NCBI GenBank assembly: GCA_000503835.1
Contig: CP006914.1
Coordinates: 157,218-221,217 of the forward strand
Direction of reading: 5' to 3'
DNA: 64,000 bases
DNA from: a candidate division WWE3 bacterium RAAC2_WWE3_1
GTDB taxonomy: Bacteria > Patescibacteriota > WWE3 > UBA101185 > UBA10185
Below the pieces are notes generated by a model. That model was not told the DNA's origin, did not search any database, and saw only the letters and a list, made by a program, of their open reading frames with translations. This document shows positions 32,108-45,854 of the stretch, in pieces. Position numbers and translations under genes: made by a program. Each line of letters opens with the position of its first letter. Position 1 is the stretch's first letter.

Positions 32108-32189
32108 TTTGATACCTCCTAAATTTGGATTAGAGGCTAATTGTACCCTATAGTACATATTTTGTCCAGTCTTAGGGATGTTTAAATGG

Positions 32190-32262
32190 AGCCGATAACA
32201 GGAGTCGAACCTGTGACCTTTCCCTTACGAAGGGACTGCTCTACCAACTGAGCTATACCGGC
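32190..32262 (-). tRNA. tRNA-Thr (anticodon CGU)
   Basis: Reverse-complement folds as GCCGGTA-TA-GCTC-AGTTGGTA-GAGC-A-GTCCC-TTCGTAA-GGGAA-AGGTC-ACAGG-TTCGACT-CCTGT-TATCGGC-T. Very close to canonical bacterial tRNA-Thr; one G·A mismatch at position 27-43. CCA is encoded at 32187-32189. Confidence 0.85.
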
Positions 32263-32370: not shown

Positions 32371-32408
32371 TTGACTTGCGTCAGGTCGGATACTACAATA
32401 CCTAGTAA
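32371..32408 (+). promoter_or_regulatory. Sigma70-like promoter (TTGACT-17-TACAAT) overlapped by inverted repeat TACTA-N7-TAGTA; near-leaderless start of blaI-like gene
   Basis: TTGACT at 32371-32376, a 17-nt spacer, and TACAAT at 32394-32399. Inverted repeat TACTA at 32391-32395 / TAGTA at 32403-32407. The ATG at 32410 has no Shine-Dalgarno. Confidence 0.5.
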
Positions 32409-32409
32409 C

Positions 32410-32808
32410 ATGAGCAATAAAAGGGTTACAGGCAAAGTATTGGGTAATCTGGAATCCGAGGTAATGGAAATTATCTGGAGTCTAAAAGGCGAGGCTTCGG
32501 TCAAATGTGTGGCCGAAATTTTAAGCAAAAAACGCAAAATCGCATATACAACCGTGATGACCGTCATGGCGAGACTAGCGAGTAAAGGTGTTCTGGTACG
32601 ACACATGAACGGGCCGAGCTATCTGTATAAACCCAAAGTTACAAAAGACCGATTTATAGCAAAAGCGGCCCACAGTATTTTTTCTTCGGCCGTTTCCAAC
32701 CTGGGTGATGAAGTGTTAGCTCATTTTATAAAAGAAATCCAAAAGATTAGTCCGAAGAAACGACAGGAGCTTTTGAAGATGCTGAACGAAGACCGAAAGG
32801 GTATTTGA
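32410..32808 (+). CDS. BlaI/MecI/CopY-family winged-helix transcriptional repressor
   Basis: EVMEIIWSLKGEASVKCVAEIL...IAYTTVMTVMARLASKGVL matches the penicillinase-repressor family N-terminal domain. No CopY-type C-terminal Cys motif. Confidence 0.8.
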   Translation: MSNKRVTGKVLGNLESEVMEIIWSLKGEASVKCVAEILSKKRKIAYTTVMTVMARLASKGVLVRHMNGPSYLYKPKVTKDRFIAKAAHSIFSSAVSNLGDEVLAHFIKEIQKISPKKRQELLKMLNEDRKGI

Positions 32809-32823
32809 CGCTTTTCTCGAATT

Positions 32824-33834
32824 ATGAAAAGAATTAATTTAAGTTTTTATGTATTACTTTTATCTTCGTTAAGTGTCGGTCTGGTTCTGACCGCCGTTTT
32901 ATATAAAGTTTCACCTTTCTTTACTTCAAGAACCCTTTTCCTTTGTCAAAAATTCGTTTCGGGCATGATGACGGAAATTCCCCGTCCGGTGTCTAACTTA
33001 CTCATTCTGGCTGTAGGGATAGTTGTAGGGACAGGGCTTTTATCTTTCCTAGTGCAACTTATCAAAACCCATATTTTCTTAAAAAAACTACTCGTAAAAA
33101 AGATTCCGGTATCCCGGGTGTTAGCAGGAGTCCTGGAAAAATTAAAACTTACAAAGAAAGTAGTTCTGGTTAAGGACGACAACCTGTTTTCTTTTTGTTG
33201 CGGTATCTTTTCCCCCTTTATAGTTGTGAGCACCGGTCTTGTGAGATCCCTGACAGTCAAAGAATTAGAGGCAGTTCTGTTACATGAACAATCTCATCTG
33301 ATAAGCAGGGATCCTGGTAAGGTCCTTCTGGGAAAAACATTTTCCTCTATGTTCTTCTTTCTGCCTATTTTTAGGGAGCTTCATAAAGATACGGAGGCAG
33401 TCAATGAACTGTTAGCGGATCAATGGGCGATCAGACACCAGGAAAATTCAACTTTTTTGCGCAGTGCCCTTAAAAAAATATTAGCGGCACCCGAAGTAAA
33501 TTTGGCAGCTGTTTCCAACGCATCCGGTCCGGACTATTTCGAGATAAGAATCCACCGTCTAGTGGACCCCGGCACAAAACACAAACTCAGGCCTTCACCG
33601 GTAAGCTTAGTGACGACCTTTTTGTTTATTTTGGTGGGGTGGTTCTCATTGCAAACTCCGGTCAATGCTTTTCATTCGGATACTATGAACAACAACGCTT
33701 ATCATTCGGATACTATTTTTTTATGTTCACACGATTGGGCCTGTTCCGAGGAGTGCAGGATTAACATTGAACAGCCCGTGAAATATATACCCGCCGACAT
33801 GCTCGTGCCCGAAAAGAAATGCGGAAACGATTAG
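32824..33834 (+). CDS. BlaR1/MecR1-like M56 zinc metalloprotease signal transducer lacking the penicillin-binding sensor domain, with Cys-rich C-terminal tail
   Basis: About 4 TM helices and an HExxH (LLHEQSHLISRD) zincin motif positioned as in the M56 family. Only 336 aa. C-terminus CSHDWACSEECRIN...KKCGND. Confidence 0.72.
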   Translation: MKRINLSFYVLLLSSLSVGLVLTAVLYKVSPFFTSRTLFLCQKFVSGMMTEIPRPVSNLLILAVGIVVGTGLLSFLVQLIKTHIFLKKLLVKKIPVSRVLAGVLEKLKLTKKVVLVKDDNLFSFCCGIFSPFIVVSTGLVRSLTVKELEAVLLHEQSHLISRDPGKVLLGKTFSSMFFFLPIFRELHKDTEAVNELLADQWAIRHQENSTFLRSALKKILAAPEVNLAAVSNASGPDYFEIRIHRLVDPGTKHKLRPSPVSLVTTFLFILVGWFSLQTPVNAFHSDTMNNNAYHSDTIFLCSHDWACSEECRINIEQPVKYIPADMLVPEKKCGND

Positions 33835-33938
33835 AATGTGTGCCGTTTTTCTATCCGGTTTCCTCTTATTTTCTTATTGACAAAACTCAGGTAGTTCTAC
33901 TACACTGAGTAGTAGTTCATTTAGAAAGGAGGTATCTT

Positions 33939-34202
33939 ATGACGGAAACTCAGAAATCAGAAACAAATACAACTCCCATTCAGGAAAGCACAGTAATCGT
34001 ACGTGTCCCCAAACCAAATCTACAGGTTGTGGTGCTGGGACTCATAGCTCTTATCACTCTTTTTCAAACTTTTCAACTGATGCGTATTAGTGCTAAAGCC
34101 AGTACGGTATCGGTAAAATCCGCTCCCGCCACTACCACTAATAGCGGAACCGGCACGGGAACCGATTCGGATGTACCGGAGTCAATGGTTGGAGGCTGCT
34201 AA
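33939..34202 (+). CDS. Small membrane protein (87 aa) ending in GGC
   Basis: Strong Shine-Dalgarno AAGGAGG at 33926-33932, one TM helix, Thr/Gly-rich tail. Confidence 0.45.
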   Translation: MTETQKSETNTTPIQESTVIVRVPKPNLQVVVLGLIALITLFQTFQLMRISAKASTVSVKSAPATTTNSGTGTGTDSDVPESMVGGC

Positions 34203-34226
34203 GTCGTTACACAGGATTGAAATACT

Positions 34227-35459
34227 ATGAACTGGAAAAGTGTTTTATCAGATGTTGGTTCCGGGGTGAGGAGTAAGAAAGAAGACTTAAATATCACGTG
34301 GCCAAAGATAATTTTGAGCATCGGATTTTTGGCCGCTGTTATCGGAGCCCTTGTTTCAACCGAAACCCTTGCAACCATCAATAAAAATATTGCCAAAGCG
34401 GAAGAAGAAGCCCGTCCTGCCGAGGTGGCGATAGTTAAGATAATTACCCCCGATTGCCGTTATTGTTTTAATGTCGACTTGGCAGTGAATGATTTTAAAA
34501 AGCAAAATGTTAAAGTAGTGGAAGAAAAAACTTTAATTTACGGTTCCCCGGAGGCCGAAGCCTCGATCAGGCAGTTTTCAATTCAAAGAATTCCTACTTA
34601 TATTGTTTCAGGAGAAATAACCAAAAGTAATATTGAGAGTTTTGTTAAAAGTACCGGAGAAGTTAGAGGAGCCGCCGAAGACACATCGACAAGCAATGCT
34701 TTTGTTTTTACCAAGGTCACACCTGTTTATATCGATACCGAAAGTAACCAGGAAATGGGCAAGGTAACGGCAACTATATTGAGCGACCCGTCGTGTACTC
34801 AGTGTTTGGACCCTAAATTGACGATAGAGGGTTTTAAAAAGTCCGGAATAAAAATAGTCGACGAAAAAGAGATAGTTTGGAACTCTTCCGAGGGTAGGAA
34901 AATTATTGATCAGTTCAAAATTACTAAATTACCCACCTTTATTCTTTCCCCTGAGATAGATATCTACGATAACGTTAGGTCAAACTGGGCTAATATCGGA
35001 ACAATAGAGCAGGATAAAACTTATGTGGCGAGAAATTTGTTCTTTCCATACAGAGACATAGAGAAGGGCGGAATATTGGGATTGGTCGATTTGGTGTATC
35101 TTGTCGATTCAAGCTGCGGCGATTGTTACAAGGTCGACACCGTCCAGAAACCCATTCTTGAACAGGGATATGGCGTTCGTTTTCGTTCTGAAAGGACAGT
35201 TGACGTTTTATCCGAAGAGGGACAACGTTTGACGAATAGATACAAAATTACTAAACTTCCCACAATACTGTTATCACCCGATGTAGCTCAGTACACAAAT
35301 CTGCAAAAAATCTGGAACGGTGTCGGAACGATTGAACAGGACGGTTGGTATGTATTCAGGGAGATGCAGCAATTGGGCGGAGCTGTTTACAAAGATTTGG
35401 CAACCAATCAGACGGTCGGAAAGACGCCTGCAGTATCCGGCACGGGGGGAGCACAATAA
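34227..35459 (+). CDS. Membrane-anchored protein with three tandem thioredoxin-fold (DsbA/Trx-like) repeats, each with a CxxC motif
   Basis: N-terminal TM, then three ~110-aa repeats carrying CRYC, CTQC and CGDC. Each is followed by a conserved ...KITKLPT(F/I)(I/L)LSP(E/D)... and ...GTIEQD..YV segment. Confidence 0.7.
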   Translation: MNWKSVLSDVGSGVRSKKEDLNITWPKIILSIGFLAAVIGALVSTETLATINKNIAKAEEEARPAEVAIVKIITPDCRYCFNVDLAVNDFKKQNVKVVEEKTLIYGSPEAEASIRQFSIQRIPTYIVSGEITKSNIESFVKSTGEVRGAAEDTSTSNAFVFTKVTPVYIDTESNQEMGKVTATILSDPSCTQCLDPKLTIEGFKKSGIKIVDEKEIVWNSSEGRKIIDQFKITKLPTFILSPEIDIYDNVRSNWANIGTIEQDKTYVARNLFFPYRDIEKGGILGLVDLVYLVDSSCGDCYKVDTVQKPILEQGYGVRFRSERTVDVLSEEGQRLTNRYKITKLPTILLSPDVAQYTNLQKIWNGVGTIEQDGWYVFREMQQLGGAVYKDLATNQTVGKTPAVSGTGGAQ

Positions 35460-35464
35460 TAATT

Positions 35465-36745
35465 ATGAACTCATTATTAGCACCATTAAAAATTATTTTC
35501 AGAGAGTCTTTTTACAGGCACGTAGCTTTCTTCACGATCCTGGCATTCGGTTACCTTTCCTATTGGCTATTTTACAAGAGCACAACTTTCGAAACCTACC
35601 TGTTAAATATGAAGACCGGGGATTTTGGAGAGTTCAGTGTTGCATACGGCGTTACTTACATATCTACAACAATTTTGACAATTATTTTATCCGGGATAAG
35701 CGTGGCTACAGTTTTTTGGCTTTACCGTCATTCCAAGTTGAGTCAGATCAGGAATATCGGCGCAAATCTTGGGGGGCTAATCGCAGCCTTTTTCGGTACA
35801 GGCTGTCCCGTATGCGGAGCGTTCTTATTGTCAGCGATCGGTGTAACAGGAGGACTGGCCGTATTTCCCTTACAAGGACTGGAACTTAAATTTTTAAGTT
35901 TGGGTCTTATCGCAGGGTCATTATTTTACGGTGTTAAGAAGGTACACGAAATGATTCACTGCGACGATTGTAATGATATCTCACACGACCGCAAAAGCCG
36001 CACAAGTGAAAAAAAAGGCCGCAGGTTTTTTATTTTGCCGCTAAGAGACACTCTTATATACACTCTGGCAGGACTTTTCCTTGTCAACCAATTTTTAATT
36101 GCGCAGGTTTCTGCGGCTATGGGTATGGTTGCTAATAAGGGATTAGTAGCCCAGCTTTTGGGCATACAAACCAGGTCTACCTACACCATAATTGCTCCCA
36201 AAATAAATCCCGACAAAAAGACCACTTCGCTTGCCGAATGGCCGACAATCACTGAAGTTCCGGCCAATCCGAATAGTGGAAACGCACTCGCCGATGCCAA
36301 GGTAGTAATGATTGCGACCGGTCAGCCTTTTTATGCCCCAGAAAATGTCTCGTTTGATGACCCGATTAATGCCCAAAAGAAATGGGGGGCATTTGAAAAA
36401 TCCATAAAACTGTCAACGGAACAGGAAGCAAGATACCAAAGACTTATCGGTACTATGATGACCTGCAGCTACTGTTGCGGCGGCCCTAAAAATGTAACTA
36501 TGAATAAAAACTGCGGATGTGCTCACGCAAAAGCCGTGAGAGGATTTTACCGCTACATGATCCAGAATTACGGCGACAAATACTCTGATGAACAATTGGT
36601 AGGCGAGTCACATCGATGGTACGCCTTGTGGTACCCGAAAGGAATGCTTGAAGATTATTTGCTGGCTACCGGTAACGAAAGTGCATTACCTCACACGTCA
36701 CACGGAGGTGCAGGTTCAGACGGAAGGCACGGAATCGCGAAATGA
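35465..36745 (+). CDS. Cys-rich polytopic membrane protein (TM CPVC, loop CDDC, C-terminal CSYCCGG/CGC cluster)
   Basis: Start reassigned to ATG at 35465 (MNSLLAPL...), immediately after the stop of the upstream gene. About 4 TM helices; GTGCPVCGAFLLSAIGVTGG lies in a TM segment. The alternative overlapping frames at 35320/35345 are rejected. Confidence 0.6.
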   Translation: MNSLLAPLKIIFRESFYRHVAFFTILAFGYLSYWLFYKSTTFETYLLNMKTGDFGEFSVAYGVTYISTTILTIILSGISVATVFWLYRHSKLSQIRNIGANLGGLIAAFFGTGCPVCGAFLLSAIGVTGGLAVFPLQGLELKFLSLGLIAGSLFYGVKKVHEMIHCDDCNDISHDRKSRTSEKKGRRFFILPLRDTLIYTLAGLFLVNQFLIAQVSAAMGMVANKGLVAQLLGIQTRSTYTIIAPKINPDKKTTSLAEWPTITEVPANPNSGNALADAKVVMIATGQPFYAPENVSFDDPINAQKKWGAFEKSIKLSTEQEARYQRLIGTMMTCSYCCGGPKNVTMNKNCGCAHAKAVRGFYRYMIQNYGDKYSDEQLVGESHRWYALWYPKGMLEDYLLATGNESALPHTSHGGAGSDGRHGIAK

Positions 36746-37089
36746 TCAATTTCATCGATTACCTCGATTTTTTCATATTTATAGGCGGAACTGTAATACT
36801 CGTAGGTATACTTTATTTTTTCTTCCGTGATTCCTTAAAGGATATTTTTATTTCGGAGGATGACATAGCGGAGCCTGAAATTTCAAAACGTTCGCCCGTT
36901 GTGGAAATATTATTTTCCGAAGACCGTAAAAATAATCCGTCATCGGCTTTGATTAAAAAGATAGGGGCGGTTTTTATAGCTATTATTATCGGCGGTTTTG
37001 TGCTGAACCAGTTCCTGATGTGGAAAATGACCTCTTCCGCTATTTCGGAAAGGCCTTTCGATATAAATATTAGTATTTCTAAAAAATGA
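36742..37089 (+). CDS. Small membrane protein
   Basis: 115 aa, two hydrophobic helices, translationally coupled to the upstream gene (4-nt overlap). Confidence 0.4.
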   Translation: MINFIDYLDFFIFIGGTVILVGILYFFFRDSLKDIFISEDDIAEPEISKRSPVVEILFSEDRKNNPSSALIKKIGAVFIAIIIGGFVLNQFLMWKMTSSAISERPFDINISISKK

Positions 37090-37096
37090 GAAAAAT

Positions 37097-37648
37097 ATGA
37101 CAACAGAAACCAAGGTTTTAATAAGTGTCGCGATAGTTACAGTCGCTCTCCTCGGAGGGGGTGTGTGGTTTATGAGTAATCAGACTGCCGGAGAACAGGC
37201 TAAACTAAGTCGACCGTTAATGGGCGAAACCACCCCGGATCAGGGAGCCGCGCACATACCGGAAGGTACAACGGCGGAATACAGCACGAATCCTCCGACA
37301 ACCGGTCCGCACTACGGAAAGTCCCAGTCCGCTGGTATTTACGATATGCCGATACCGGATGGAAACCTTTTACATAGCATGGAACATGGGGCGGTCATAA
37401 TTTGGTATAAAGCAGCCAATGGGTCAGAGGACGGAGGCTTATCCGGTCAGGATATTGAGCGGCTAAAACAGATTTTCAGCTCGGTTGCCGTTAATAAGAA
37501 AATCATGGTGCCGAGGGAAAACCTTGATGTTCCGGTAGCTCTAACCTCCTGGGGTAGATTACTTAAGCTTCAGACAATCGATGAAATCCAAATCAAAGCT
37601 TTTATGGAGACGAATGAAGACAGGGGTCTTGAAAAAGCGCCGCTCTAG
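37097..37648 (+). CDS. Membrane-anchored DUF3105-like protein
   Basis: N-terminal TM. PTTGPHY and HSMEHGAVIIWY match the conserved Gly-Pro-His and His-x-x-E-H-G segments of DUF3105. Confidence 0.6.
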   Translation: MTTETKVLISVAIVTVALLGGGVWFMSNQTAGEQAKLSRPLMGETTPDQGAAHIPEGTTAEYSTNPPTTGPHYGKSQSAGIYDMPIPDGNLLHSMEHGAVIIWYKAANGSEDGGLSGQDIERLKQIFSSVAVNKKIMVPRENLDVPVALTSWGRLLKLQTIDEIQIKAFMETNEDRGLEKAPL

Positions 37649-37790: not shown

Positions 37791-38246
37791 ATGGGTGAAT
37801 TAATTGTAAGTAAAGACATTTTGAAGAAGGCGTCATTAAAAGGAGCCATTTCTTTTACCGTTCTCTTGTCGGTGTACTTCCTGATTCTAACGCTAGTTTC
37901 GGGATGGAACTTTGCCTGGGTGCAGTTTACGCAGTTTTGGTATTACATCCTGACTCTCGCTTTAGGATTTGGTATACAATTTACCCTTTACAGCTACCTT
38001 AGAGATGTTGTGAAACAAGCTTCTACAGGACAAGTTTTGGCTACAACAGGGGCAACGTCGACGGCAGCCATGATATCCTGCTGTGCTCACTACTTAACCA
38101 ACATCCTGCCCGTTTTGGGGGTAACAGGAATTATTACTTTTATTGGCCAGTACCAGGTTCAATTTTTCTGGGCCGGATTATTTTTTAATCTTCTTGGGAT
38201 ACTTTACATCGGAAATAAAGTTTTGAAAGTTTCGGGACGAATATGA
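37791..38246 (+). CDS. Polytopic membrane protein with MerT-like vicinal-Cys helix (MISCCAHYLTNILPVLG)
   Basis: 151 aa with about 4 TM helices. The CC motif sits within a helix followed by Pro/Gly, as in MerT TM1. Confidence 0.5.
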   Translation: MGELIVSKDILKKASLKGAISFTVLLSVYFLILTLVSGWNFAWVQFTQFWYYILTLALGFGIQFTLYSYLRDVVKQASTGQVLATTGATSTAAMISCCAHYLTNILPVLGVTGIITFIGQYQVQFFWAGLFFNLLGILYIGNKVLKVSGRI

Positions 38247-38722
38247 AGAAAACTACAGTTATTTTTATCGTTATATTAATAGTTATTTTGGTTATCGTGC
38301 TTAAAAATAGTCTTACCGTAAATATAGGCCCTAAAGATATAGGTACGCCTGCCGGCACAAACGGTTCTTTCCAAAACACAAATAGCAACAACGGCTTGGA
38401 AACAAAAGAAAGTAACGACGGTCCGGTATCCGTCACCGTTACGCCTCTTGATGTAGGGGATAACGCATCCCTATGGAGTTTTGACATCGCGCTAAACACT
38501 CATTCTGAGGAGATTGGAGAAGATCTGACTGTTGTGTCCGTGCTTATAGATGACGGAGGAAAGACATACAGACCTATATCGTGGGAAGGTTCAGCTCCGG
38601 GAGGCCACCATCGTAGCGGTGTTCTAAAATTTAGTGCTATATCACCCAGACCTAATACTCTGGAGTTAAAAATAAACAATGTCGGCGGAATTTCCGAAAG
38701 GAGCTTTAAGTGGGAGCTTTAA
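38243..38722 (+). CDS. Membrane-anchored beta-rich protein with His-rich patch (APGGHHRSG)
   Basis: N-terminal TM, then a predicted beta-sandwich-like extracytoplasmic domain. No family assigned. Confidence 0.45.
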   Translation: MKKTTVIFIVILIVILVIVLKNSLTVNIGPKDIGTPAGTNGSFQNTNSNNGLETKESNDGPVSVTVTPLDVGDNASLWSFDIALNTHSEEIGEDLTVVSVLIDDGGKTYRPISWEGSAPGGHHRSGVLKFSAISPRPNTLELKINNVGGISERSFKWEL

Positions 38723-38729
38723 AAAGTTT

Positions 38730-39323
38730 ATGAGTGAAAAGAAAGTCATTGTAATAGTTTCCGTAATCACGATAGCTTTGCTCATAGTGCCTACCTTTCT
38801 AATTGGCGGCAATAAAGGTGACAACTCTTCTAAAACTTCGACGGAGGCCGCATCTCTTAACGAGTTAGTTGGAAGATCTGCGGCTGATTTTACCCTGGAA
38901 AGTTATAATGGCGACAAAACAACTCTGAGTAGTCTTAAAGGTAAAAACGTAATCCTCTTTTTTAATGAAGGTCTCATGTGCTATCCGGCTTGTTGGGATC
39001 AGATTGCCGCTTTCGGGAAGGACACCGAATTTGCAGATAAAAATACGGTGGTATTAACTATTGTGACCGATTCAAAAAAAGATTGGGAAGGTGCAGTTGA
39101 AAAAATGCCGGAGCTTACCGGGGCAATTGTCTTACTCGATACTAACCGAAAGGTATCCGTTTCGTATAAAATGCTATCGCTTCCTTCCTCGATGCATAGA
39201 GGCCAGACTCCGGGGCATACTTATGTAGTTATTGATGCCGAGGGTATTGTTCGCTATGTTAAAGATGATGTTCAAATGGCTGTCAGAAATCAGGAGTTAC
39301 TGGCGGAGATAGGAAAACTATAA
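38730..39323 (+). CDS. Membrane-anchored thioredoxin-fold protein, Sco1/SenC- or redoxin-like (CxxxC)
   Basis: Start moved to ATG at 38730, after the upstream stop. TM anchor. GKNVILFFNEGLMCYPACW has C-x3-C in the Sco1-type position, with a conserved His about 85 aa downstream (SSMHRGQTPGH). Confidence 0.65.
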   Translation: MSEKKVIVIVSVITIALLIVPTFLIGGNKGDNSSKTSTEAASLNELVGRSAADFTLESYNGDKTTLSSLKGKNVILFFNEGLMCYPACWDQIAAFGKDTEFADKNTVVLTIVTDSKKDWEGAVEKMPELTGAIVLLDTNRKVSVSYKMLSLPSSMHRGQTPGHTYVVIDAEGIVRYVKDDVQMAVRNQELLAEIGKL

Positions 39324-39326
39324 TCT

Positions 39327-40193
39327 ATGGAACTTTTAATTAGTGCATCATTTATAGCATCGTTCTTTGCGGGAATCGCAGCACTTTTTGCCCCCTGCTG
39401 TATCACTGTTCTCCTGCCGACTTATTTCGCTTCCATTTTTAAGCAGAAATCTACCGTGTTTTTGATGACCTTTGTTTATTTTCTCGGTATCCTGTCGATC
39501 TTTCTTCCTATCGGTCTCGGAGTTTCATTTCTCACCCAGCTTTTCAGCCAATACCATGACACCATTTTCCTCATCGGCGGAATATTTTTGATATTTCTGG
39601 GGATGACTTTACTTCTCGGACAACAAATGTCTTTACCTTTCAGCGTCCACCCGAAATTAAAAGGGCAGGATTTTGTGTCGGTTTATGTCTTAGGTGTATT
39701 TTCAGCCGTCGCAACCACCTGCTGCGCCCCCGTACTAGCAGGAGTCCTGACTTTGTCGGCGCTTCCCGGATCGGTGTTCTTAGGCGGAGTTTATACTCTT
39801 GCTTATGTACTGGGCATGGTCCTGCCTCTTTTCATTATCGCCTTTACTTTAGACAAGGTCGATTTTACTCAGAAGTTCGTTGCCTTTAGAAAGAGAATCT
39901 CTTACTCTGTGCTCGGTCAAAAGGTAAGTCTGACTTTTGCTAATCTATTCTCCGGGCTAATGTTCCTGGTTCTGGGCATTGTTATAATTTACCTTGCCAA
40001 GACAAGCCAGCTGACATCCCACTCCTCATACCAGGTTTCGTTGAATATATACCTGACAAAATTTATTAACGGGATAGGACGGTTTACGCAGGTTATTCCC
40101 GAGGCAGGATGGGCTGCCATTTTCATCCTTGTCACACTGTTCGTTACTTTTACTGCCATCAGACAATTTATAAATTTAAAGAAAAGGAAGTGA
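39327..40193 (+). CDS. CcdA/DsbD_2-like transmembrane protein with two MerT-like vicinal-Cys helices
   Basis: 8 predicted TM helices. FAPCCITVLLP and ATTCCAPVLAGVL lie in separate helices. Confidence 0.6.
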   Translation: MELLISASFIASFFAGIAALFAPCCITVLLPTYFASIFKQKSTVFLMTFVYFLGILSIFLPIGLGVSFLTQLFSQYHDTIFLIGGIFLIFLGMTLLLGQQMSLPFSVHPKLKGQDFVSVYVLGVFSAVATTCCAPVLAGVLTLSALPGSVFLGGVYTLAYVLGMVLPLFIIAFTLDKVDFTQKFVAFRKRISYSVLGQKVSLTFANLFSGLMFLVLGIVIIYLAKTSQLTSHSSYQVSLNIYLTKFINGIGRFTQVIPEAGWAAIFILVTLFVTFTAIRQFINLKKRK

Positions 40194-40199
40194 TTTTGA

Positions 40200-40865
40200 A
40201 TGAATAAAAACGGACTTATTGCAACTTTGGGCACCGGGCTGATTTTGGGTTTAGTTATACTTATAAGCAATTTTAATATTCGGATAGATGTAAATAGTAA
40301 CGATGGCCGGGAGCCTATCGGCAGACAGATGACACCGCAGGCACAGGATGACTCTATGGCGGGTCATCACGGAGGTGGCACACCGGCCGACGCCACTCTT
40401 TTTAACGACTTGGTCGGTAAAACGGCGCCTGACTTTACGTTGGAAAGCTACGATGGAAAAAAGATAACTCTTAGTGAGCTGAAGGGTCAGAACGTCATTC
40501 TTTTCTTTAATGAGGGCCTCATGTGCTACCCGGCCTGCTGGAACCAGATTTCTGCTTTCGGCAAGGATACTGCATTGCAAAGTAAGGCTGTGGTACTAAA
40601 CATCACGGTCGACCCCAAAAATAACTGGAAACAGGCCGTAAATAAAATGCCTGAACTTGCCGGTGCCACGGTACTTTTTGACAGCAGTAGGGAAGTCTCT
40701 AAGAAATACGGAGTTTTAACTCTGCCGTCATCAATGCACAAAGGTCAATTTCCGGGGCACAGCTATGTAATAATAGACAAAGAAGGAACAGTTAAATTTA
40801 TCAGGGACGATGTTTCTATGGCGGTAAGAAATGATGAGCTATCTGCGGAACTGGACAAGTTGTAA
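40200..40865 (+). CDS. Sco1/SenC- or redoxin-like thioredoxin-fold protein, paralog of 38730-39323, with His/Met-rich N-terminal segment
   Basis: About 60% identical to the upstream paralog over the folded domain, with the same LMCYPACW and SSMHKGQFPGH motifs. N-terminal segment DSMAGHHGGG. Confidence 0.65.
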   Translation: MNKNGLIATLGTGLILGLVILISNFNIRIDVNSNDGREPIGRQMTPQAQDDSMAGHHGGGTPADATLFNDLVGKTAPDFTLESYDGKKITLSELKGQNVILFFNEGLMCYPACWNQISAFGKDTALQSKAVVLNITVDPKNNWKQAVNKMPELAGATVLFDSSREVSKKYGVLTLPSSMHKGQFPGHSYVIIDKEGTVKFIRDDVSMAVRNDELSAELDKL

Positions 40866-40884: not shown

Positions 40885-41094
40885 ATGGGTATTTTTAATA
40901 ACGTACAAAGTATCTTTAAAAAGACCGGTAGTGCAGTAAACTACGTTAAAGACCCGATCTGCGGTATGAAGGTTAATCTGGATAAGGCAGAATTCAAAAG
41001 TACATATGAAGGCAAAGAATATGGTTTCTGTTCTGCAAGCTGTAAGGTTGAGTTTGACAGTAATCCCGACCAGTATGCGCTTGCAGGCCGTTAA
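40885..41094 (+). CDS. YHS/TRASH-domain metal-binding protein
   Basis: DPICGMKV...GKEYGFCSASCKVEFDSNPDQY fits the YHS domain pattern. Shine-Dalgarno AGGAGG at 40872-40877. Confidence 0.8.
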   Translation: MGIFNNVQSIFKKTGSAVNYVKDPICGMKVNLDKAEFKSTYEGKEYGFCSASCKVEFDSNPDQYALAGR

Positions 41095-41137
41095 ATATTT
41101 TCGACCGTACGGATTTTGTTAATTCCATATTTGTTTA

Positions 41138-41166
41138 TTGACAGTAGTTGTGCAGACTGATATATT
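41138..41166 (+). promoter_or_regulatory. Sigma70-like promoter TTGACA-17-TATATT upstream of arsR-like gene
   Basis: TTGACA at 41138-41143, a 17-nt spacer, and TATATT at 41161-41166. Short direct repeat TATTTC-GA-TATTTC downstream (41174-41187). Confidence 0.5.
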
Positions 41167-41195
41167 ATTGAAGTATTTCGATATTTCAATAAACT

Positions 41196-41468
41196 ATGTC
41201 AAAGAATACCTTAAAAGTTTTTAAAGCATTGGCAAACAGAACCAGGATAAAAATACTCAAAAAGCTGGTAGATGACGAGGAACTGTCCTGTCAGGAACTG
41301 ATGAAACATTTTCCATTATCACAGCCCACTCTTTCACACCACTTCGGCAAATTAATAGAAGGCGGAATTTTACGTGTAAAGAAGGACGGTGTCAGCCACT
41401 ATTATAGTGTCAATAAAACCTATCTTGCAGGCCTCGGCGTGGATATCGAAAAGATAACAAAGTTGTAA
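41196..41468 (+). CDS. ArsR/SmtB-family metalloregulatory transcriptional repressor
   Basis: LANRTRIKILKKL...ELSCQEL...LSQPTLSHHFGKLIEGGIL matches the ArsR HTH signature. Confidence 0.85.
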   Translation: MSKNTLKVFKALANRTRIKILKKLVDDEELSCQELMKHFPLSQPTLSHHFGKLIEGGILRVKKDGVSHYYSVNKTYLAGLGVDIEKITKL

Positions 41469-42109: not shown

Positions 42110-42215
42110 CGGAACGCATTGTTTTTGTTTGCGATGTTTTTCGCTCCGCCATTCTCATCCCTTACACCCTATAAATTTGCCCACCAACCCTACGGGCTGT
42201 TGGTCAAATTTCTGG

Positions 42216-42287
42216 AGCGGGTGACGGGATTCGAACCCGCGACCTTTTCCTTGGGAAGGAAACGCCATACCACTAGGCCACACCCGC
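42216..42287 (-). tRNA. tRNA-Gly (anticodon CCC)
   Basis: Reverse-complement GCGGGTG-TG-GCCT-AGTGGTA-TGGC-G-TTTCC-TTCCCAA-GGAAA-AGGTC-GCGGG-TTCGAAT-CCCGT-CACCCGC-T, close to E. coli tRNA-Gly(CCC). CCA encoded at 42213-42215. Confidence 0.85.
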
Positions 42288-42871: not shown

Positions 42872-42918
42872 TTATGAACCTCCTTCATACGGGGGCAGAA
42901 AATATATCTATACAATGG

Positions 42919-42992
42919 CGGGATCGACGGGACTCGAACCCGCGGCCTCCGCAGTGACAGTGCGGCGCTCTAACCGACTGAGCTACGACCCC
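42919..42992 (-). tRNA. tRNA-Asp (anticodon GUC)
   Basis: Reverse-complement GGGGTCG-TA-GCTC-AGTCGGTTA-GAGC-G-CCGCA-CTGTCAC-TGCGG-AGGCC-GCGGG-TTCGAGT-CCCGT-CGATCCC-G. The T-arm is identical to E. coli tRNA-Asp. CCA encoded at 42916-42918. Confidence 0.85.
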
Positions 42993-43494: not shown

Positions 43495-45252
43495 ATGAAC
43501 GCCAACCGCATTTCCAATAAAGAAGTCGTTTCAATGATGAAGGAAGTGTTGGCGGCAATGGATGTTAAGAATTTCAACGTTTTCAGAGTGAGAGCTTATC
43601 AAAACGCCATCGCAATCCTCGATAATCTGACGGTCTCAATTTACGACTTATGGGAAAACGGCAGGTTGAAGGAAATTCCGGGGGTAGGTGTAAGCATCTA
43701 CGCCCATTTAAATGAACTATTTTCAACAGGAAAAGTTAAAGAATTCGAGGCAATCAAAAAAGATCTTCCCGAGGGAATGTTTGCTCTTATCGGCATCCGC
43801 GGAATCGGTGCAAGAAAAGCATTTAAACTTGCTACCGCTTTCAAAATAAAAACGCGTGAGAGGGCGGTTGAAAGAATTAAAGAACACGCAGAAAAAGGCG
43901 AGGTACGAGAGCTTGAGGGTTTCGGCGAAAAATCAGAAAAGGACATACTCGAATCTATCGGTCAGTTCAAGATGACCAAGAACGAGAAACAGCGCGTACT
44001 CTACTCAAAAGCCGAAGAAACCGTGGGAAGAATTTACGATTATATGAAGGAACTGGACACCACCGGTCACATTGAGGCGGCAGGCTCTTTCCGCAGGAAG
44101 AACGCCACAATCGGGGATCTGGATATTCCCGTTGCTACCGTCGATCCCGACAAAACGATAAAGCACTTTTTACAGTTTCCTGAAATAGCGGAGACTTTGG
44201 TAAAAGGCGACAAAAAATGCAGTGTCGTCCTTAAAAATGATTTGCAGGTAGACCTAAGAGTTTCTACTCCCGAGGCGTACGGTGCTATGTTGCAGTACTT
44301 CACAGGTTCCAAACAGCACAACATCCTCCTACGCAACTTTGCCCTTTCCAAAAATATGTCTTTGTCCGAATACGGGATAAAAAAGGGAAGTGACACCCAT
44401 GAGTTTCCCGATGAACCATCCTTTTATAAATTTTTAGGACTGCCTTATATCGAACCCGAGCTTAGGAACGGTTCCAACGAGATCGAGGCTGCGATAGAAG
44501 ATAAACTTCCCGAACTTATCACACTAAAAGACATTAAAGGAGAAGTACACACACATACGACTGATTCGGACGGAGTGAGTACTTTGGAAGAGATGGTTGA
44601 GGCAGCTATCGCATTAGGTTATGAGTATCTGGGAATTTCCGATCACGCTCCCAGTGTTACATCGCGCGGATACAAAGAAGTATCGGACATTATAAAAAAG
44701 AAGCGGGCGGCGATAAATAAAATAAACGAAAAACAGAATTTTATTAAAATCTTTTTCGGGTACGAAGTTAATATTCTGGCCGACGCAACGTTGGGACTGC
44801 CCGACGATGTGTTATCGGAATTGGACTATGTTGTTGCATCTATCCACACTTCTTTTAACCAGGATCGGGAGCAGGTAACCGACAGACTTCTAGCGGCAAT
44901 AGAAAATCCGTACGTGAATATTATTGGTCACCCCTCGGGAAGGTTGCTAAACCAACGAGATCCGGTAGATCCTGCCTGGGACAAAGTGTTTTTAGCCGCC
45001 CGTGACAACAATAAAATACTCGAAATAAATTCACAGCCCGACCGTTTAGATCTTACCGACGACCTGGTAAAGGAGGCAATAAGCTGGAAGGTAAAGATGG
45101 TTATAAGCAGCGATGCCCACGCAACAGACCAGTTTTCGTACATGAGATATGGGATATTTAACGCCCGCCGGGGCTGGGCCGAAAAGAAAAATATTATGAA
45201 TACGCTCGGTTTTACTGACTTTATACGGGAAGCAGGAATACGTTTGAAGTGA
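43495..45252 (+). CDS. polX: DNA polymerase X family protein with C-terminal PHP phosphoesterase domain
   Basis: Helix-hairpin-helix motifs (IPGVGVSIYAHL, IRGIGARKAFKL), Pol beta-type nucleotidyltransferase GSFRRKNATIGDLDI, and PHP His motif VHTHTTDSDG. Confidence 0.88.
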   Translation: MNANRISNKEVVSMMKEVLAAMDVKNFNVFRVRAYQNAIAILDNLTVSIYDLWENGRLKEIPGVGVSIYAHLNELFSTGKVKEFEAIKKDLPEGMFALIGIRGIGARKAFKLATAFKIKTRERAVERIKEHAEKGEVRELEGFGEKSEKDILESIGQFKMTKNEKQRVLYSKAEETVGRIYDYMKELDTTGHIEAAGSFRRKNATIGDLDIPVATVDPDKTIKHFLQFPEIAETLVKGDKKCSVVLKNDLQVDLRVSTPEAYGAMLQYFTGSKQHNILLRNFALSKNMSLSEYGIKKGSDTHEFPDEPSFYKFLGLPYIEPELRNGSNEIEAAIEDKLPELITLKDIKGEVHTHTTDSDGVSTLEEMVEAAIALGYEYLGISDHAPSVTSRGYKEVSDIIKKKRAAINKINEKQNFIKIFFGYEVNILADATLGLPDDVLSELDYVVASIHTSFNQDREQVTDRLLAAIENPYVNIIGHPSGRLLNQRDPVDPAWDKVFLAARDNNKILEINSQPDRLDLTDDLVKEAISWKVKMVISSDAHATDQFSYMRYGIFNARRGWAEKKNIMNTLGFTDFIREAGIRLK

Positions 45253-45311: not shown

Positions 45312-45854
45312 ATGGAGATACTATTAGTTATCGTTGCGTTAGCCGCAATATTTTTAATCTCGATCTATAACTCTCTTGTAACATTGAAAGTTAAGATTAA
45401 GGAAGCCTGGAGCCAGATAGACGTACAGCTTAAAAGAAGGATCGACCTTATACCTAATTTGGTAGAGTCGGTTAAAGGTTACGCCGCTCACGAAAAAGAA
45501 GTGTTCGAAAATGTTACCAAAGCCCGCGCGGCCTTGATGACAGCAGGAGACGCGAAGGCTGCCGGAGAAGCTGATATGCAGTTAACTTCAGCTTTGAAAA
45601 GCCTTTTTGCCGTTGCTGAAGCCTATCCGGAACTAAAAGCCCAGGAAGGTTTTATAAACTTGCAGAAGGAACTTTCCGATACAGAAGATAAGGTCGCTTA
45701 CTCCAGACAATTCTTTAACAGTGTCGTAAGACAATACAACGAGAAGATTGTTGCCTTCCCTTCAAACCTGATCGCCGGAATGTTCGGATTCAAGCAAGAA
45801 GCGTTCTTTGAAGCAGAAGCGCAGGACAGAGAACCGGTTAAAGTTCAGTTCTAA
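45312..45854 (+). CDS. lemA: LemA-family protein
   Basis: N-terminal TM plus the conserved LemA core ([34 protein letters not shown]). Shine-Dalgarno GGAGG at 45301-45305. Confidence 0.85.

Follow-up and report, generated by a model that had tools for sequence, protein, structure and literature searches.

The Scs systems of Salmonella, Proteus and Caulobacter pair a DsbD-family membrane reductase with one or more thioredoxin (Trx)-fold partners, one of them membrane-linked, in copper stress, and both ScsB and ScsC are reported to bind Cu+ (PMC10907172). In the CcdA-ResA/StoA systems of Bacillus and the CcdA-Etrx system of Streptococcus pneumoniae, a membrane-anchored Trx-superfamily partner is encoded adjacent to the membrane protein. 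Sco1/SenC is a copper chaperone for oxidases, which is kept reduced by TlpA and, in Rhodobacter, is fed by a P1B ATPase. The locus analysed here, from a 64-kb stretch of DNA (the window), encodes a CcdA with a vicinal cysteine pair in each of two helices (CC/CC), together with two redoxins. CC-CcdA and its redoxins belong to an accessory module that is widespread in copper-resistance gene clusters but unstudied: literature searches on CC-type CcdA, CcdA with CsoR or copper, DsbD with Fe-S in Methanosarcina and the Tso selenoprotein system returned nothing on the CC/CC clade.

A CC-type CcdA flanked by two anchored redoxins

The ORFs of the preliminary description are all present, and all of the genes discussed lie on the + strand. 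The central gene (39327-40193) encodes a 288-aa membrane protein that matches Pfam DsbD_TM (PF02683; E 2.1e-10, 40.7 bits, cut-off 27.1) and, over residues 6-192, Thermus CcdA (5VKV; E 5.6e-14). Its two CC pairs, both already recognized, are C24 C25 in helix 1 (APCCITVLLP, 39396-39401) and C132 C133 in helix 4 (TTCCAPVLAG, 39720-39725). In the 5VKV alignment C24 (PCC) and C132 (CCAP), each beside a proline, coincide with the CcdA catalytic cysteines; the first cysteine of each pair thus occupies the catalytic position, while the second is an additional invariant residue that marks the CC clade. Helix 1 of this clade also contains a one-residue insertion relative to single-Cys CcdA. Hydrophobicity, the placement of positive charges (positive-inside) and the helix pattern of an AF2 model of low confidence fit a topology of ∼7 TM, N-out and C-in, correcting the eight TM originally counted; only helix boundaries were taken from the model (pLDDT 60), which is too poor for fold searches or geometry. 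The protein thus has no periplasmic domains and amounts to a minimal CcdA to which one C-terminal helix is added. A MerT-like identity had been proposed both for this protein and for a neighbouring CC-helix protein, but MerT (PF02411) and DsbD_2 (PF13386) profiles matched neither at E≤0.01. Homology to MerT/PF13386 was therefore rejected and MerT retained only as an analogy; by sequence, the transporter is classed as a CcdA/DsbD_TM homologue.

Redoxin 1 (38730-39323) is a membrane-anchored peroxiredoxin-fold protein (Pfam AhpC-TSA, 2.2e-16), and redoxin 2 (40200-40865) consists of an N-terminal TM anchor and a peroxiredoxin-fold domain. The mechanical ORF of redoxin 1 begins at an alternative ATG at 38679, whereas in relatives the gene is predicted from the start that gives 197 aa (38730). 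The two proteins are 63% identical over 168 aa (E 4e-80), in agreement with the earlier estimate of about 60%, and just 4 of the 80 loci surveyed below have two redoxin copies. The motifs first reported are present: LMCYPACW, SSMH and PGH in both redoxins, with C-Y-P-A-C at 38979-38993 in redoxin 1 and C109-Y-P-A-C113 at 40524-40538 in redoxin 2, and the DSMAGHHGGG linker (40350-40379) in redoxin 2 only, redoxin 1 having no Met/His linker motif. Redoxin 2 also displays M179-H180 (40734-40739) and H187 (40758-40760), and Met108 and Met207 lie, like Met179 and His180, near Cys109, Cys113 and His187 in sequence.

Alignment to the peroxiredoxin 2ywn shows that Cys113 corresponds to the peroxidatic cysteine (Cys-P), and that the other members of the catalytic tetrad, Pro, Thr and Arg, are replaced by Glu105, Cys109 and His187, respectively. 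Glu105 is invariant in 81 redoxins, and C-Y-P-x-C, M179, H180 and H187 are 95-100% conserved in the same set. As three of the four catalytic residues are replaced, the result is a Cys-Cys-His triad, whose members align with Thr, Cys-P and Arg, residues that touch one another in peroxiredoxins. The redoxins match AhpC/TSA (PF00578) in both fold and profile but lack the tetrad pattern Pro-x3-Thr/Ser-x2-Cys with a distal Arg, and so, of the possibility that they are ordinary AhpC/TSA proteins, the family membership stands and the identity as ordinary peroxiredoxins is rejected. The Sco-like identity initially proposed is not supported, as the SCO1-SenC profile (PF02630) gave no Pfam match and, among the fold matches, Sco structures come far behind both peroxiredoxins and TlpA-like proteins. 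The proteins are thus assigned from sequence to the AhpC/TSA peroxiredoxin fold rather than to Sco. Etrx2 and ResA are strong structural matches, and all scores against the NCBIfam ResA and StoA models are far below the cut-offs. The CxxxC motif and His187 are conserved in the lineage of the window. Plasmid-borne relatives contain CxxC (C-Q-P-C-W, C-P-P-C-W or C-G-S-C), the C-Y-P-A-C-W of the window being one residue longer. The exchange of Thr/Cys/Arg for Cys/Cys/His is probably a catalytic site rebuilt into a metal site, and would be a clear case of such a conversion.

Neighbouring genes, distribution and copper context

Upstream of redoxin 1 are genes for the CC-helix membrane protein (37791-38246; 151 aa, ∼4 TM) and a membrane-anchored extracytoplasmic GGHH domain protein (38243-38722; 159 aa). 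The former, whose SCCAHY motif is as originally described, has conserved M94, C97, C98 and H100 (M..CC.HY), has no match in Pfam, NCBIfam or the PDB, and is present in 43/80 loci, where the GGHH gene is usually the next one. The idea that it is a half-CcdA repeat was unsupported (hhalign probability 25%, CC motifs unaligned). The GGHH protein (conserved T86-H87 and G-G-H122-H123) occurs in 33/80 loci. A DUF3105 protein (37097-37648; Pfam 2.1e-27) with conserved H53, H72, H93, E96 and H97 is found in 17/80 loci and also in the copper island of Streptomyces pFRL6. Further upstream lies a conserved block of six genes (32371-37089), which encode a BlaI/CopY-type repressor (32371-32805), an M56 sensor-peptidase (32824-33834), an 87-aa protein ending in GGC (33939-34202), an anchored protein with three Trx-like CxxC domains (34227-35459), a Cys-rich membrane protein with GCPVCG and CSYCCGG...CGCAH motifs (35465-36745) and a 115-aa protein (36742-37089). 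The block adjoins the module in loci L006, L007 and L009 and lies downstream of it in L026. On the other side of the module are a 69-aa YHS/TRASH-type metal-binding protein (40885-41094; DP.C.M...FC...C, Pfam YHS 6e-19) and a 90-aa ArsR/SmtB-family metalloregulator (41196-41468; NCBIfam HTH_metalloreg 73 bits, cut-off 55). The best promoter-like site of the region (41138-41166) precedes the ArsR/SmtB gene; promoter and terminator counts in the scan were no higher than in shuffles, and support for operon boundaries is weak.

Among 150 CcdA representatives clustered at 50%, 94 have CC in both helices and 23 have the single cysteines of canonical CcdA, while 22 one-helix fragments have CC in the helix that they cover. 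The two pairs co-vary, being either both present or both absent, and within the clade they are invariant down to ∼30% identity; together with the conservation of H187, this bears out the expectation that both features hold across homologues. The CC/CC pattern, the paralogy and the motifs are not due to chance. The clade is present in at least 574 species genomes from Patescibacteria, DPANN archaea, Actinomycetota and Burkholderiales, its hosts being mostly Patescibacteria and DPANN archaea. Public (PGAP) product names are ‘cytochrome c biogenesis protein CcdA’ and ‘peroxiredoxin family protein’, both of which are probably misleading.

The neighbourhoods of 80 CC-CcdA loci display a copper signature. 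Nearby genes include a Cu-type P1B ATPase in 57/80 loci, YHS proteins in 37/80 and CsoR in 33/80. CsoR was dropped as proof of Cu(I), as the C-H-C fingerprint at strict spacing is found in only ∼8 of 35 proteins, most others being C-H-H in the alignment. CsoR alone does not fix the metal, and the case for copper is carried by the ATPase signatures. CC-CcdA is naturally fused to CPH-type (CopB-like) ATPases, to YHS (P0250), to the redoxin and to the neighbouring GGHH domain, which is attached to the CC-CcdA C-terminus in P0282. L067 joins GGHH to YHS, and L014 joins ArsR to YHS. The fusions to CC-CcdA place YHS, HMBD, His-rich segments and ATPase on the inner face of the transporter and GGHH on the outer face. 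In plasmids of cultured bacteria (Burkholderia, Paraburkholderia, Streptomyces, Rubrobacter, Cellulomonas and Microvirga), CcdA(CC)-redoxin-glutaredoxin-like cassettes lie inside CueR/CopC/DUF2933 copper islands, and in pFRL6 BlaI/CopY and M56 genes are directly upstream of the cassette. The association with copper thus holds across phyla and is backed by fusions beyond mere neighbourhood. In Patescibacteria and DPANN archaea, few genes accompany copper ATPases as constantly as this module.

Possible functions of the module

The best explanation, to which we assign slightly less than an even chance, is that the module is an envelope thiol relay of Scs type with a role in copper homeostasis, which would operate like ScsB/ScsC or the CcdA-Etrx/ResA systems. 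A cytoplasmic thioredoxin, or a glutaredoxin-like CxxC protein, would donate reducing equivalents to the CC-type CcdA, which would pass them across the membrane to the two anchored redoxins. It is the architecture alone that argues for this direction of electron flow to an extracytoplasmic Trx-fold partner, as an anchored redoxin adjoins CC-CcdA in 77/80 loci and a glutaredoxin-like gene is present in 6/6 plasmids. The Cys109-Cys113-His187 site, close in sequence to Met108, Met179, His180 and Met207, would be kept reduced and could then bind Cu(I) that reaches the cell surface, a Cu-exporting P1B ATPase being one conceivable source, and/or restore thiols that copper has oxidised. The extra vicinal cysteines may allow the transporter itself to bind Cu(I), as reported for ScsB. 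Several observations sit uneasily with a thiol relay. No Cu ATPase was found in the 64-kb window, the CxxxC and His ligand set of the redoxins is Sco-like in the lineage of the window, and the metal-binding domains fused to both faces of the protein resemble those of a metal transporter. Furthermore, one cysteine per helix would be enough for a disulfide relay, but none of the four varies within the clade. To our knowledge, vicinal CC pairs characterize the hand-off of soft metals, as in MerT, MerC, MerF and the C-terminus of MerA, and are not typical of disulfide relays.

The invariance and co-variation of these four cysteines would be accommodated by a different reading, which we consider rather unlikely, in which the CC/CC clade is no electron carrier and the DsbD fold has been repurposed as a soft-metal elevator. 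The membrane-embedded thiols would bind Cu(I), or Ag(I), and carry it through the membrane by alternating access, in either direction: import for sensing or supply, or export. The Cys-Cys-His redoxin with its Met/His linker and GGHH would be the outer, MerP/Sco-like partners, and YHS, HMBD and the glutaredoxin-like protein the inner ones, giving a copper counterpart of the MerP-MerT relay that is sometimes fused to a CPH-type ATPase. In accord with such a conduit, the fusions to YHS, to GGHH and to P1B ATPases with HMBD and His-rich segments put putative metal sites on both faces, and the redoxins, which lack peroxiredoxin catalytic residues, have conserved Cys, Met and His ligands, with a D-x-M-x-H-H linker in about half of the partner redoxins. 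The Pfam clan of DsbD, moreover, includes the metal transporters CadD, NicO and MntP. However, the canonical CcdA cysteines and a Trx-fold partner are retained, and hence the known mechanism suffices; redoxin relatives have an ordinary CxxC; copper import would cycle futilely if an exporting ATPase stood next to the importer or was fused to it, and passive export beside such an ATPase would be redundant. The thiol-based metal delivery or translocation module first envisaged is partly supported: the MerT and Sco families are not upheld, and metal translocation, in corrected form, is the main rival of the preferred relay.

By sequence and by fold, the redoxins match peroxiredoxins best, and envelope peroxiredoxins fed by CcdA or ScsB have been described (PMC3322552). 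These data could fit a general envelope reducing pathway or peroxide defence, in which CcdA would reduce either a peroxiredoxin-like enzyme at the surface or a partner in methionine-sulfoxide/thiol repair, while the copper genes would be mere stress-island neighbours. This is improbable given the replacement of three of the four universal peroxiredoxin residues and the cross-phylum copper association with gene fusions, and the 80 loci show no recurrent Msr gene. A CcdA-ResA pair for cytochrome c maturation is favoured by nothing but the name of the Pfam family and the product names given by PGAP, and can be dismissed with near certainty, as the preliminary description had done: the window contains no CxxCH ORF, no c-type cytochrome, CcsBA/ResBC or ResB/CcsB-like family is recurrent among the 80 loci, most hosts belong to Patescibacteria or DPANN archaea, and a second CcdA-annotated gene near the pFRL6 cassette has CC in helix 1 and a single Cys in helix 4. 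The module is not a cytochrome-maturation system.

If the thiol relay is correct, the module would be a second, Scs-independent tie between envelope thiol redox control and copper; if the conduit is correct, it would be the first DsbD-fold metal transporter. The clade occurs in Patescibacteria and DPANN archaea, whose envelope biology is almost unknown, and its presence on copper-resistance plasmids of cultivable hosts opens its function to genetics.

Comparison with known systems

The redoxins differ from PrxQ/BCP and AhpE-type peroxiredoxins not only in the Glu, Cys and His that replace Pro, Thr and Arg, but also in being anchored outside and encoded with CcdA. Of the features that mark TlpA/ResA/CcmG-type extracytoplasmic reductases, a membrane anchor and W-C-x-P-C at the start of helix 1, the redoxins have an anchor, and their motif is C-Y-P-A-C-W. 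MerT/MerP likewise has a vicinal Cys pair in a TM helix, together with a two-Cys partner outside the membrane and a thiol acceptor in the cytoplasm, but there is no homology, the transporter fold is that of CcdA, the neighbours carry copper signatures, and MerA, MerR and MerP are absent from the 80 loci. The resemblance to Sco1/SenC with TlpA comprises an anchored Trx-superfamily protein, CxxxC with a distal His, and the link between a Cu-exporting ATPase and a reducing pathway; in contrast, the His of the redoxins aligns with the peroxiredoxin Arg, and no oxidase genes were found in the 80 loci or the 64-kb window.

CcdA-ResA/StoA, CcdA-Etrx and Thermus CcdA share a homologous membrane core with the transporter, but have one cysteine per helix where the CC clade has a vicinal pair and the helix 1 insertion. 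Their partners contain WCxPC and a cis-Pro, as opposed to CxxxC with conserved His and Met, and the genes around them are for cytochromes, spores or Msr rather than copper. The ScsB membrane domain has single catalytic cysteines and ScsB possesses periplasmic domains, in contrast to the minimal CC/CC CcdA with its extra C-terminal helix, while ScsC is DsbA/DsbG-like with CxxC, and the partner here is of peroxiredoxin fold with His replacing the peroxiredoxin Arg. The likeness to Scs therefore appears to be one of function and context, as opposed to membership at the sequence level.

Identity of the membrane protein and its redoxins

Redoxin 1 (38730-39323), the membrane protein (39327-40193) and redoxin 2 (40200-40865) are encoded by closely packed ORFs on the plus strand, as placed in the preliminary description; an alternative upstream start for redoxin 1, the ATG at 38679, would make it overlap with the gene before it. 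The membrane protein, initially read as a MerT-like transporter with eight transmembrane helices, matched neither the MerT nor the DsbD_2 profile and is instead a CcdA/DsbD_TM homologue (Pfam PF02683, 2.1e-10), aligning through residues 6-192 with the solved Thermus thermophilus CcdA (5VKV, E 5.6e-14). It contains exactly four cysteines, in two vicinal pairs, APCCITVLLP (pair at nt 39396-39401) and TTCCAPVLAG (39720-39725), the first Cys of each, C24 and C132, aligning with the two CcdA cysteines. A count of seven helices rather than eight, six from the CcdA core and one additional, is consistent with the positive-inside charges, the hydrophobic segments and the helix positions in an AF2 model of low confidence (pLDDT 60); the chain would begin outside and end inside, at the KKRK tail.

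The two redoxins are paralogues: 63% of residues are identical across 168 aa (E 4e-80), close to the original estimate of about 60%. As first reported, LMCYPACW, SSMH and PGH are common to both, and the DSMAGHHGGG linker is found in redoxin 2 only. In the AF2 model of redoxin 2 (pLDDT 82 overall, >90 for residues 61-221), a helix anchors the N-terminus and a disordered stretch links it to a well-predicted domain. By profile the proposed likeness to Sco was not upheld; the matches were to AhpC-TSA and Redoxin. The rival identity named in the preliminary description, an ordinary AhpC/TSA peroxiredoxin, fits the superfamily match but not the active site, which lacks three of the four catalytic peroxiredoxin residues; every NCBIfam equivalog scored far under its cut-off. 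With MerT, Sco and catalytic peroxiredoxin memberships all rejected, sequence comparison assigns the module to the DsbD_TM and AhpC/TSA superfamilies only. No NCBIfam model covers the module, and a literature search found no paper on it.

A CcdA clade with paired cysteines

Searched exhaustively with HMMER, a set of 1.84 billion representatives yielded 1435 relatives of the transporter. Of the 150 best, 94 have CC in each of the two helices (hereafter CC-CcdA), 22 are fragments with CC in the sole helix covered, and 23 show the canonical CcdA arrangement, one Cys per helix and a gap of one residue in helix 1. The clade signature, APCC[IV]xxxLP plus [ST]xCCAPVLxG, stays unchanged in members of as little as ∼30% identity, so within the clade the pairs are conserved, the check originally suggested for them. 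Scanning for the pattern in one genome from each species gave at least 574 carriers, the best 80 of which are mostly Patescibacteria and DPANN archaea, together with Thermoleophilia, Arachnia, Dehalococcoidia and a betaproteobacterium; these 80 loci are the closest relatives, and Patescibacteria are therefore over-represented.

A same-strand redoxin of this family adjoins the transporter in 77 of the 80 loci, and C-Y-P-[ASG]-C is present in 80 of their 81 redoxin ORFs. Residues conserved at 95-100% in the 81 proteins are F102, F103, E105, G106, C109, Y110, P111, C113, W114, Q116, D138, W143, D161, S177, M179, H180, G182, P185, G186, H187, D203, D204 and M207, and thus include two Cys, two His and two Met; M108 is conserved at 93%. 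About half of the partner redoxins have a D-x-M-x-H(-H)-G linker motif just ahead of the domain. As only four loci encode two redoxins, the second copy beside the window's transporter is specific to its lineage. Two DPANN loci encode N-terminally extended redoxins (L065 7110-7982, Woesearchaeota; L085 7120-7992, Aenigmatarchaeota); the former extension, FLCACCGQPLDKNNICCGMAEE, resembles the C-terminal Cys cluster of window protein 35465-36745, and the part of the latter that was read is a similar linker tail.

Copper genes around the module

Neighbours were counted within 8 kb of the 80 transporters by phmmer with window proteins as queries against raw ORFs, not gene calls; as many contigs are short, the counts are lower bounds. 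P1B ATPases occur at 57 loci, the CC-helix protein (37791-38246, with the CC noted initially, in SCCAHY) at 43, YHS (40885-41094) at 37, the GGHH protein (38243-38722) and a CsoR-family repressor (PF02583) at 33 each, DUF3105 (37097-37648) at 17, the GCPVCG protein (35465-36745) at 16, ICMT at 14 and DUF2933 at 11. In Alteromonas copper islands, DUF2933 is repeatedly found beside copper ATPases (PMC8478169). Nearly every full-length neighbouring ATPase has the Cu-type signature N-x6-YN-x4-P plus M-xx-SS, with CPC, CPH or the unusual CPD in TM4, and in many of them the N-terminus carries a heavy-metal-binding domain with YTCPMHPEV. CPD (context VVIACPDALGLAT) occurs in 18 ATPase ORFs (for example at L023, L079 and L082), which keep YN and M-xx-SS and, where both parts were read, the YTCPMHPEV domain; we know of no described CPD subtype. 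The CsoR-family repressors (33 of loci L006-L085, for example L029 6811-7077) are mostly C-H-H rather than the classical C-H-C, only ∼8 of 35 matching C-x24-H-x3-C.

The window cluster, which lacks a Cu ATPase, extends from BlaI (32371) to LUD (42109). Its conserved upstream block (32371-37089) encodes a BlaI/CopY-type repressor followed by an M56 sensor-peptidase, an 87-aa protein with ESMVGGC at its C-terminus, an anchored protein in which each of three Trx-like domains has a CxxC (CRYC, CTQC, CGDC), the GCPVCG protein (a PCYCGC-like 426-aa membrane protein lacking a Pfam match, whose GCPVCG lies in a helix and whose C-terminus bears a CSYCCGG...CGCAH cluster) and a 115-aa protein; the block also adjoins the module in other Patescibacteria (L006, L007, L009, L026). 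Candidate division WWE3 is nearly syntenic with the window (94% identity). In WWE3 relatives a 75-aa DUF2933 gene (CPLMH.FMM..HG.H; L001 7170-7397) lies between the GGHH and redoxin 1 genes; in the window it is missing, only a short overlap being left at 38679-38730. The transporter is 94% identical to a WWE3 protein and 82% to a Daviesbacteria one (P0129, P0149), both from distant Patescibacteria lineages, which points to strong constraint or to the island having moved laterally. The ∼10-kb thiol/copper cluster is bracketed by minus-strand tRNA genes, tRNA-Thr(CGT) (32187-32262) on one flank and tRNA-Gly(CCC) (42213-42287), then tRNA-Asp(GTC) (42916-42992), on the other, a layout typical of integrated islands, but its G+C (0.42-0.43) is not distinct. 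Just beyond the island's downstream end, PolX (a PHP-domain DNA polymerase of family X, 43495-45252) and, after it, a LemA-family protein (45312-45854) appear unrelated to the module. The top promoter-like site precedes the ArsR gene and a weaker one the CC-helix gene, a hint only, as counts did not exceed those in shuffles.

Relatives were also found by tblastn in 36 plasmid records. All six inspected (Burkholderia contaminans, Paraburkholderia fungorum, Microvirga, Streptomyces sp. F12, Rubrobacter tropicus and Cellulomonas) contain a three-gene cassette comprising CcdA (CC/CC confirmed), a redoxin annotated 'peroxiredoxin family' or 'redoxin', and a small glutaredoxin-like CxxC protein without TM helices. 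Surrounding copper genes vary between plasmids and include CueR, DUF2933, CopC, DUF305, DUF3105, a four-helix-bundle copper-binding protein, BlaI/CopY with M56, and heavy-metal ATPases. These redoxins have CxxC (CQPC, CPPC or CGSC) but keep the G-H before the β strand, so that the His can be assigned to the family as a whole and CxxxC to the window's branch. The module is widespread and probably mis-annotated, and cultivable hosts make it testable.

Fusions and possible function

Gene fusions point the same way as the copper neighbourhood. CC-CcdA is fused to a CPH-motif ATPase (P0253, and P0292, which also has HMBD and a His-rich stretch), YHS (P0250), a redoxin (P0242, L073) and a GGHH domain homologous to 38243-38722 (P0282); the CPH motif marks CopB-type pumps. 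The junctions are in line with an N-out/C-in topology: YHS and ATPase parts come after helix 7 (inside) and GGHH after helix 6 (outside). Other loci encode YHS-GGHH, ArsR-YHS and redoxin-PCYCGC-like fusions. YHS and ArsR/SmtB, separate adjacent genes in the window (40885-41468), form one protein in L014 (7470-7994), suggesting that the regulator senses metal through YHS.

From homology, conservation, neighbourhood and fusions, on which all functional statements here draw, we infer two main readings that fit the same anatomy, as thiol-disulfide and metal-thiolate exchange use the same type of relay. We favour, tentatively and at somewhat below even chances, an electron relay serving copper stress. 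Electrons would pass from a Trx or Grx-like protein through CC-CcdA to the redoxins, which at the surface may hold or buffer Cu(I) or repair copper-oxidised thiols. Such transfer has been demonstrated for the CcdA/DsbD_TM family, whose catalytic cysteines are retained here at their positions; the partner has a Trx fold and, among its wider relatives, a reductase-type CxPC or CxxC; and ScsB/ScsC, Cu+-binding thiol oxidoreductases in copper stress (PMC10907172), provide a direct precedent. It is less likely, though a serious contender, that the four CC-CcdA thiols carry Cu(I) itself; in its favour are the unvarying second Cys of each pair, the parallel with vicinal cysteines in MerT and MerA, and the metal-binding domains fused on both transporter faces. 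Given the replaced active-site residues and the copper context, a general peroxide or repair pathway is improbable. The 64-kb window contains no CxxCH ORF, in keeping with the early remark that cytochrome genes are not nearby, and a role in cytochrome maturation is very improbable indeed. For the favoured electron relay, the systems closest in working are Scs or CcdA-Etrx/ResA, and the module's ligand set is similar to that of TlpA-Sco.
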